Assembly (NCBI GenBank): GCA_945947715.1
Contig: CAMEYZ010000001.1
Location: 1 to 46,923 of the forward strand
Length of the DNA: 46,923 nucleotides
Source: an uncultured Clostridia bacterium
GTDB taxonomy: Bacteria > Bacillota > Clostridia > Oscillospirales > Ruminococcaceae
Direction: 5' to 3'
The notes under the pieces were generated by a model. That model did not search any database, was not told the DNA's origin, and saw only the letters and a program-made list of their open reading frames with translations. Below, piece after piece: positions 5,380 to 11,985 of this stretch. Each line of letters opens with the position of its first letter. Within the stretch, counting starts at the first letter, position 1. Position numbers and translations under genes: made by a program.

Positions 5380-5476
5380 TTAAGGAAGTGCTGATTAAAG
5401 GCACGGCCATCGTTTCCGACACTCGAAAATCCGTCACTGAGAGTGTCGAGAAACGATTTAATCAGCAGTTCCTTAA
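5380..5476. repeat. 97-nt imperfect palindrome (long hairpin) in the phoR-ppk spacer, ends TTAAGG...CCTTAA
   Basis: Left arm is TTAAGGAAGTGCTGATTAAA...CGTTTCCGACACTC. The reverse complement of the right arm is TTAAGGAACTGCTGATTAAATCGTTTCTCGACACTC. Inner stem GACACTC/GAGTGTC with a 16-nt loop. Confidence 0.7.
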
Positions 5477-10870: not shown

Positions 10871-10899
10871 ATTATATCAGACCTTGCTGAAAAAGTCAA
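10871..10899 (-). promoter_or_regulatory. Consensus sigma-A promoter for the MoxR-VWA cassette 1
   Basis: Minus strand reads TTGACT - 17 nt - TATAAT with extended -10 TGATATAAT, about 100 nt upstream of the MoxR ATG. Confidence 0.65.
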
Positions 10900-11007
10900 T
10901 TTTCTTTTGCTCGGCTATATCAGCACTTAATTCGCAAAGCCTTTCATTCAGTTCATCAATATGCTTTTCAAACCACACAAGAAGTCTTGATGACATATCA
11001 GCCTGCT

Positions 11008-11187
11008 TTAAGGCAACACCGCACAAAGCACGCCTAACGGCTTTGCACGCAATCTGCTTGCAGATTTTCCGTCATCTTGCACAGAAATTTCTTGACAGGC
11101 GCCAGCCTGCCTGCGAAATTTCTGTACAATCTGACGAAAAATCTGACTGCGCATCTTGCGCACAAGCTCTGTGCGGTGTTGCCTTAA
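11008..11187. mobile_element. 180-bp MITE-like palindromic element flanked by TTAA
   Basis: Terminal inverted repeats TTAAGGCAACACCGCACA(A/G)AGC match at 21 of 22 positions. Nested inner inverted repeats are CAGATTTT(C/T)CGTCA and ACAGAAATTTC/GAAATTTCTGT (11 of 11). There is no ORF of its own. Conceptual excision restores a host reading frame. Confidence 0.6.
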
Positions 11188-11985
11188 ATAAATATATCTG
11201 TTTTCCGAAATCGAATCGTAATACTGACCATAGAAATTGCAGACAGCCAGAAAGTAATAGAATAGCTTCCCCGCGTTTTCTATATCATAGGAGTTTAATG
11301 GACTAAATTCCATATAATCAATAATATAGCGCATCAAAGCCTCTATACTGAGCTCCCCCTGTCTGACCTCCGGAGCCATAAAGACATAGGATCTGACAAT
11401 CTCCCATATGTATGGGTGCTTGCAGGCGCAGGTCCAGTCAATGATACCGTTTATTTTATCATCAAGCCATATGAGCTGAGATATCATATAATCGCCATGG
11501 GTATTCCCGCAGCTGAATTTGTTAATATCAAACTCATAGGAAGGGATAGCTTCGACAATCCTCATATTGGAACGAATCGCAGCTGCAATATCAGTATCAC
11601 CATTATCAATAGCCTGCTGCAAGGTATCAGTATAGGAATCCTTCATGTACTCAGGTTTTCTGTATATAAAGAAATCCCTGTCTATGCCTATGGGGATATT
11701 CTCCATATCCTTCATAGCTACGTGTATCCTTGCCAATAAAGCAGCCGATTCCTTCTGCATATTCTCGGTTGCTTCATTGTAGTCATATGTGATGCCCTCG
11801 TAGAAATGCTGAACAGTAAATCTTCGTCCGTTTCCATACTCCCACTTTGAGACTGTTTTTTCGCTTATTCCTAATCTTGCCGCGATATCCTTTTGTAAAA
11901 GGCCACGCTCTTTTCTGCGTTCGGCAATAAATTTTCCTATCTTGATCTGATCCATTGTGTATTCTCCATTCATAGTTTTTGACAA
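11008..11985 (-). CDS. Chimeric XRE-HTH / APH-like phosphotransferase ORF; the last ~59 codons are encoded by the inserted palindrome (probably non-functional)
   Basis: N-terminus IGKFIAERRKERGLLQKDIAARLGISEKTVSKWEYG is an XRE HTH. The rest carries the kinase catalytic loop HGDYMISQLIW and IIDWTCAC (APH/choline-kinase fold). No glycine-rich or Lys N-lobe is visible. Confidence 0.6.
   Translation of the reverse strand: MSKTMNGEYTMDQIKIGKFIAERRKERGLLQKDIAARLGISEKTVSKWEYGNGRRFTVQHFYEGITYDYNEATENMQKESAALLARIHVAMKDMENIPIGIDRDFFIYRKPEYMKDSYTDTLQQAIDNGDTDIAAAIRSNMRIVEAIPSYEFDINKFSCGNTHGDYMISQLIWLDDKINGIIDWTCACKHPYIWEIVRSYVFMAPEVRQGELSIEALMRYIIDYMEFSPLNSYDIENAGKLFYYFLAVCNFYGQYYDSISENRYIYLRQHRTELVRKMRSQIFRQIVQKFRRQAGACQEISVQDDGKSASRLRAKPLGVLCAVLP

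Follow-up and report, generated by a model that had tools for sequence, protein, structure and literature searches.

The minus-strand reading frame at positions 11,008–11,985 of the stretch analysed here (the window, 46,923 nucleotides from an uncultured clostridial member of the Ruminococcaceae) ends in a long palindrome bracketed by TTAA. The locus raises the question whether this palindrome belongs to the gene's own 3′ region or is a mobile element that has landed in it and, in the latter case, which kind of transposase would have moved it and what has become of the gene. The evidence set out below makes it highly probable that the palindrome is a 172-bp IS5-type MITE, inserted at a TTAA of a regulator–kinase gene that is now decayed. 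The window's own genome is referred to as G000, and G002, G003, G004, G005 and G006 are genomes of the same genus.

The palindrome and its insertion site

An earlier note on this DNA had described a TTAA-flanked, palindromic and hairpin-forming insertion, a description borne out by the inverted-repeat, folding and empty-site data. It had given the element 180 bp and 22-nt terminal inverted repeats agreeing at 21 of 22 positions; the letters are as described, but TTAA is the duplicated target and lies outside the inverted repeat, so that the element proper measures 172 bp (11,012–11,183) and its ends 18 nt. The features of the insertion are as follows.

11,008–11,011, no strand assigned: left copy of the target-site duplication, TTAA, 4 bp, which holds the TAA stop of the current ORF
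11,012–11,183, no strand assigned: the MITE proper, a 172-bp nested palindrome without a transposase
11,012–11,029, plus strand: left terminal inverted repeat, GGCAACACCGCACAAAGC, whose first 15 nt are those of the right end of an IS5-family element in G003:C12
11,166–11,183, minus strand: right terminal inverted repeat, which reads GGCAACACCGCACAGAGC in the inward direction
11,184–11,187, no strand assigned: right copy of the target-site duplication, TTAA, 4 bp

The two 18-nt ends agree at 17 of 18 positions and form part of inverted-repeat arms of 23 nt that are 96% complementary (11,007–11,029 and 11,166–11,188). Between these arms lies the inner inverted pair (11,061–11,091 and 11,115–11,145) that the earlier note had correctly recognised as nested. 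Two occurrences of the 18-nt terminus are present in the window, where 0.02 would be expected by chance. Folding of the element region gives one long hairpin, predicted at −118.8 kcal/mol (z = −16.4 relative to shuffles). ORFs across the 172 bp are read-through frames only; the element has no transposase gene of its own.

The insertion site itself can be inspected in its unoccupied state. Two close orthologues from the same genus, G005:C373 (79% amino-acid identity) and G002:C6 (75%), carry a single TTAA exactly at the insertion point, and their reading frame runs on uninterrupted. The coding strand of G005 reads GATATATTTAT-TTAA-AGCAGGCGGATATG, with one TTAA, while that of the window reads GATATATTTAT-TTAA-(172 bp)-TTAA-AGCAGGCTGATATG; the insertion point falls within the codons ...TAT TTA AAG CAG... 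of an HTH-APH-DUF2087 gene, whose TTAA has been duplicated. Both orthologues translate across the site as ...NRYIYLKQADMSSKLL(V/A)WF(D/E)KHIDELNEKLCE..., and the joined flanks of the window likewise read NRYIYLKQADMSSKLL. The tail obtained by joining the flanks also aligns with more distant homologues in G132, G075 and G094 (blastp E = 1.5e-9 to G132), and the element-encoded tail has no match in these three. The comparisons that the earlier note had proposed, a search for empty sites and an alignment of orthologue C-termini with the restored tail, are thus answered by the single TTAA of the two orthologues and by their matching C-termini. The note had also named a single-copy sequence with no empty site as the outcome that would speak against an insertion; the opposite was found, multiple copies together with empty sites.

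A hairpin native to the 3′ region of the gene, whether a terminator, an attenuator or another structured RNA, would be in keeping with the very stable fold and with a terminator-like sub-hairpin and T run inside the element (11,165–11,147, minus strand). This explanation has next to no probability, given that the hairpin is absent from orthologues that read straight through the site, that the same sequence recurs in unrelated contexts in many genomes and is accompanied there by 4-bp duplications, and that an Rfam search of the element returned no family (best score 18.6 bits, gathering threshold 45). The element is instead an ordinary but well-documented case of a prokaryotic MITE, showing the structural characteristics of this class: it is short, lacks a transposase, and has terminal inverted repeats, a fixed-length duplication, dispersed copies and an empty site.

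Target-site duplications and the repeat family

Target-site duplication was assessed in 101 non-redundant elements from many genomes, scoring the direct repeats that abut GGCAAC...GTTGCC. A perfect 4-bp direct repeat is present in 64 of the 101 elements, whereas the 4 bp immediately outside it agree in 2 of 101 and shuffled partners match in about 26; a 5-bp repeat was found in none of the 101. The consensus of the duplication by position is T88% T83% A83% A95%. TTAA makes up 33 of 58 perfect duplications in a separate tally; the others found include TAAA, TTTA, CTAA, GTAA, TCAG and CTTG, as well as a TTAG variant. Even where the left flank is not TTAA the right flank is frequently the same (27 of 48 such elements). 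The 37% of copies without a perfect duplication may include some that have decayed. Overall, the duplication is exactly 4 bp long, and TTAA is a preferred target but not an obligatory one.

The predominance of TTAA, as the commonest duplication and in the consensus, is what a TTAA-specific element would display, moved by a piggyBac-like or IS1380-like transposase rather than by one of the IS5 family. We consider such an origin very improbable in view of the many non-TTAA duplications, including the 27 with identical left and right flanks, and of the GGCAACACC-type ends, which begin with GG and agree with IS5-family elements in 15 of 15 and 15 of 18 positions (see below). The profile PF13843 was also without a match in five genomes of the genus, which weighs little against a piggyBac origin because control genomes were equally silent.

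The copy number, which the earlier note had recommended counting, is high: the element is present twice in G000, and in dozens to hundreds of copies in relatives. G000 is a 2.16-Mb MAG of 281 contigs with a completeness of 93%; its second copy (G000:C185:4201-4332, 92% identity) lies downstream of an acetate-kinase-like gene at the end of a contig. Matches were obtained in all eight of eight genomes of the genus, with about 92 terminus hits in G002 and about 45 paired elements in one sister genome. R. callidus ATCC 27760 yielded 452 first-look candidates, and another 124 came from R. flavefaciens FD-1; 40 of these were scored per genome, nearly all of them full-length at 172–173 bp. An exact-terminus scan of a species-level genome collection retrieved at least 119 DNA stretches, nearly all from Ruminococcus or Oscillospiraceae, and R. 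callidus ATCC 27760, R. flavefaciens FD-1 and R. albus AR67 are among the matches listed. A consensus built from 41 full-length copies shares 95.3% identity with the window copy.

Besides the full-length form of 172–173 bp, elements of 93–95, 81–83, 46 and 33–34 bp occur, and these size classes constitute an internal-deletion series of the nested palindrome. A subfamily in G006 (L025, L031, L034 and L038) combines the same palindromic core with other ends, GGTCACCTCTAAAAACC, in dozens of copies that are flanked by 4-bp duplications of TTAA, TTAT or TAAA; its termini have apparently been exchanged as modules.

The family is mostly intergenic: an ORF of at least 120 aa spans the joined site in 12 of 58 well-flanked copies, compared with 79% of random positions, which places the window copy in a genic minority. 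Palindromic, high-copy and mostly intergenic repeats are also typical of the REP/BIME type, or of an IS630-type repeat such as RUP and Correia, for which a RAYT (REP-associated tyrosine transposase) or a TA-duplicating transposase would be responsible. The RUP elements of pneumococcus and the Correia elements of Neisseria resemble the Ruminococcus family in being high-copy MITEs of about 100–160 bp with IS-like ends, internal-deletion variants and the potential to form hairpins. RUP and Correia families duplicate TA, however, whereas the Ruminococcus family has a 4-bp duplication and IS5-type ends, and it differs from REP/BIME in having a target duplication and IS-type ends at all. A duplication of exactly 4 bp rather than 0 or 2, together with ends that match IS5-family elements, leaves an assignment to either type with a very slim chance, and an IS5-type MITE remains the preferred reading.

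Several further observations concern the distribution of the repeat. Copies at 78–86% identity are present on seven contigs of uncultured 'Bacteriophage sp.' that derive from viromes of human faeces (including MT835572.1, MT835885.1 and MT838104.1), and a search of a plasmid collection for the element gave no match. A Cas3-like ORF of 892 aa at L149:2115-5125 lies between a solitary left terminus and a complete MITE, with TAAA at both outer flanks; this arrangement could be due to chance or represent a MITE-bounded composite. The window itself holds a copy of a second MITE family:

5,380–5,476, no strand assigned: an 89-bp element flanked by duplicated TTAA, its termini reading GGAAGTGCTGATTAAAGG and GGAACTGCTGATTAAATC

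At least 14 copies of this 89-bp family are present in G000, flanked by TTAA, CTAA, TTAG or CTAG.

The predicted folding of the main family is markedly asymmetric between the strands. In 41 of 41 non-identical full-length copies the same strand, corresponding to the minus strand of the window, folds better as RNA, with a mean of −94.6 kcal/mol for the favoured strand and −69.9 kcal/mol for the other. This preference of about 25 kcal/mol raises the prospect that the family is also constrained as a strand-specific folded RNA or single-stranded DNA, either through a function or as a strand-dependent intermediate of transposition. Double compensatory changes at 30 of 64 predicted consensus pairs point in the same direction, as do 254 G.U cells against 27 A.C cells on the favoured strand, a count that is biased by the consensus structure having been predicted on that very strand. 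We nevertheless regard the constraint as unlikely. The copies are kin, and fixed G.U pairs may have come from a master copy; minority states, with G.U at 30 pair positions and A.C at 22, are not clearly different; and the orientation of the stable strand relative to flanking genes is unbiased (31 co-oriented and 28 anti-oriented, p = 0.79). The bcr1-type repeats of the Bacillus cereus group are MITE-like, and their strand-specific G-U pairing suggested a constraint at the RNA level. Predicted folds of the Ruminococcus family have a similar one-strand bias, but here the test of orientation against neighbouring genes was negative. The predicted asymmetry is not taken as evidence of function. If the constraint were real, the family would be more than selfish DNA, namely a transcribed RNA module or a repeat that passes through a single-stranded step in its propagation.

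Candidate IS5-family parents

The earlier note had suggested searching for a cognate transposase with matching inverted repeats, and IS5-family elements with such repeats and with 4-bp flanks do occur in relatives of the window's organism. R. callidus has two 100%-identical IS copies of 1,222 bp with the ends GGAAACACTGATTAAATC and GGAAACGCTGAACAAAAGC (GGAAACACTG...) and TTAG/TTAG duplications. Their transposase, of 331 aa, scores 301 bits against the IS5-family model NF033581 (cutoff 140) and comprises DUF772 and DDE_Tnp_1 domains. The end of the local R. callidus MITE, GGAAACACTGCATAAAGC, matches the left end of the IS at 15 of 18 positions. Within the genus of the window, an element of 1,105 bp lies on G003:C12; its transposase shares 42% identity with that of R. 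callidus, its ends are GGTAACACCTCACAA and GGCAACACCGCACAA, and its flanks are TTAG and TTAA. Compared with the window MITE, the right end of this element, GGCAACACCGCACAA, agrees in 15 of 15 positions and the left end in 13 of 15. The ends of the second, 89-bp MITE family (GGAACCGCTGATTAAATC type) also resemble the R. callidus IS5-family element (13 of 18 and 15 of 18 positions, and up to 15 of 18 at the left end of the IS).

Members of the IS5 group generate 4-bp duplications at YTAR-like targets, according to ISfinder descriptions. The IS5-family elements described here (NF033581) and the MITE are alike in that their ends start with GG and that their 4-bp duplications fall on tetranucleotides rich in T-T/A-A. 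The candidate parents measure 1.1–1.2 kb and encode a single DDE transposase (DUF772 plus DDE_Tnp_1), and the interior of the MITE differs from them in being an unrelated long nested palindrome. The similarity between the MITE and either IS is confined to about 15 terminal nucleotides; since the palindromic interior is unrelated to both, the MITE is not a simple deletion derivative. Judged by their termini and flanks, IS5-family elements are likely to be the parent of the MITE family.

A further association has been observed in R. callidus, where both IS copies (L180:1005-2226 and L182) sit precisely in TTAG beside different MITE copies. Identity between the two adjoining MITE copies is only 92%, and the presence of identical IS copies beside them suggests that the transposase may be drawn to MITE ends and that IS5-family insertion next to them is targeted.

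In the mechanism that we infer, a DDE transposase supplied in trans would recognise the GGCAACACCGCACA ends, cut the target with a 4-bp stagger and insert the element. The source of this transposase would either have been lost from the window's lineage or be missing from the assembly. No IS5-type transposase was detected in G000, a MAG that is 93% complete and split into 281 contigs, using the PF01609 profile and homologues of the R. callidus transposase, in agreement with the earlier note's view of the element as non-autonomous. A search of G002, G004 and G006, two of which (G002 and G006) have high copy numbers, found no cognate transposase in these fragmented MAGs, which often drop IS copies. 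In G005, the PF01609 profile (IS4/IS5 DDE) gave one partial hit.

Other candidates for an autonomous partner were considered and rejected. The long intervals of 1.6–3.7 kb between terminal inverted repeats in fetched loci contain ordinary genes, among them those for a Cas3-like helicase, a MATE transporter and IscS, and none contains a transposase. Clustering of 1,037 ORFs from about 150 fetched loci, mostly terminus-containing, revealed no protein that recurs beside the termini. An IS4-family element of R. callidus, present in four copies and encoding a 369-aa transposase, is not bounded by MITE-like termini, and the terminus hits near it belong to MITE copies outside the element.

The decayed host gene and related repeats

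The gene into which the element was inserted has suffered more than one lesion, and its remains and surroundings are distributed as follows.

11,188–11,985, minus strand: portion of the gene 5′ of the insertion, in which a shortened HTH_3 is fused to an APH-fold kinase core without the N-lobe; G002 and G005 have HTH-APH-DUF2087 orthologues of it at 75–79% identity
11,816–11,830, minus strand: junction of a 405-nt in-frame deletion (between 11,827 and 11,826), with CGGA microhomology
10,897–11,007, minus strand: coding remnant of the 3′ part, about 37 codons long (KQADMSS...AEQKKI), now displaced but retaining homology to the orthologues
10,871–10,899, minus strand: promoter-like site before a MoxR-like gene, TTGACT-17-TATAAT with an extended TG, 11 of 12 matches

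The current ORF encodes 325 aa, of which 58 codons lie within the element, and its stop is the TAA of the left TTAA; the read-through of about 59 codons to this stop described in the earlier note therefore holds, with the count now at 58. Removal of 176 nt yields a 310-codon frame that ends in KQADMSS...FFSKV (KQADMSSRLLVWFEKHIDELNERLCELSADIAEQKKIDFFSKV) at the TGA of 10,877–10,879. The earlier note had concluded that excision restores a 43-codon tail, and the frame is indeed open up to that TGA, but only about 37 of the 43 codons are ancestral. Homology to the orthologues ends at the promoter-like site, so the last six codons and the TGA belong to the promoter region of the neighbouring gene and do not represent ancestral coding sequence.

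Intact orthologues comprise HTH_3 (positions 1–55 of 55), APH (profile positions 7–216) and DUF2087. Measured against this architecture, the window gene has lost 135 codons to the 405-nt in-frame deletion, which removed the end of the HTH and the N-lobe of the kinase including the VVK lysine strand; the MITE insertion has severed the roughly 37 surviving ancestral codons downstream; and everything beyond about 10,897, including DUF2087, is gone, the promoter-like site of the MoxR-like gene being found there instead. The abrupt end of homology in this region (10,871–10,909), at a strong promoter-like site, and the loss of DUF2087 indicate that a rearrangement joined a MoxR-VWA cassette to the stump of the gene. 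The window gene is a multi-lesion pseudogene and its 325-aa ORF is chimeric. Because the N-lobe and DUF2087 are missing, even a precise excision of the MITE would not rescue a working gene.

Palindromic MITE-like repeats that are sometimes intragenic and translated as part of a host ORF have been described as Rickettsia palindromic elements (RPE), intragenic ERIC, large BOX and Coxiella QMITE1 (PMC10969869). The window copy is comparable in that 58 element-encoded codons replace the native tail of the gene. An RPE is usually inserted in frame, and the protein keeps its full length, whereas the window element brings a stop and truncates a gene that has two further lesions. In a large automated census of MITEs across prokaryotes, Ruminococcus receives no more than a passing mention (PMC11602168), and no specific description of this Ruminococcus MITE family was found in the searchable literature.

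For the annotation of such genomes, the finding means that the last 58 residues of the 325-aa 'HTH-kinase' ORF are translated repeat DNA; similar repeat-derived 'tails' were encountered by six-frame searches in many Oscillospiraceae genomes. With candidate copies numbering in the hundreds in one 3.2-Mb genome, the family constitutes a major Ruminococcus repeat, and it is likely to cause contig breaks in gut and rumen Ruminococcus MAGs, so that its copy number is probably under-counted in these assemblies. Finally, the link to the IS5 family would provide a testable pair of transposase and substrate in bacteria for which few genetic tools are available.
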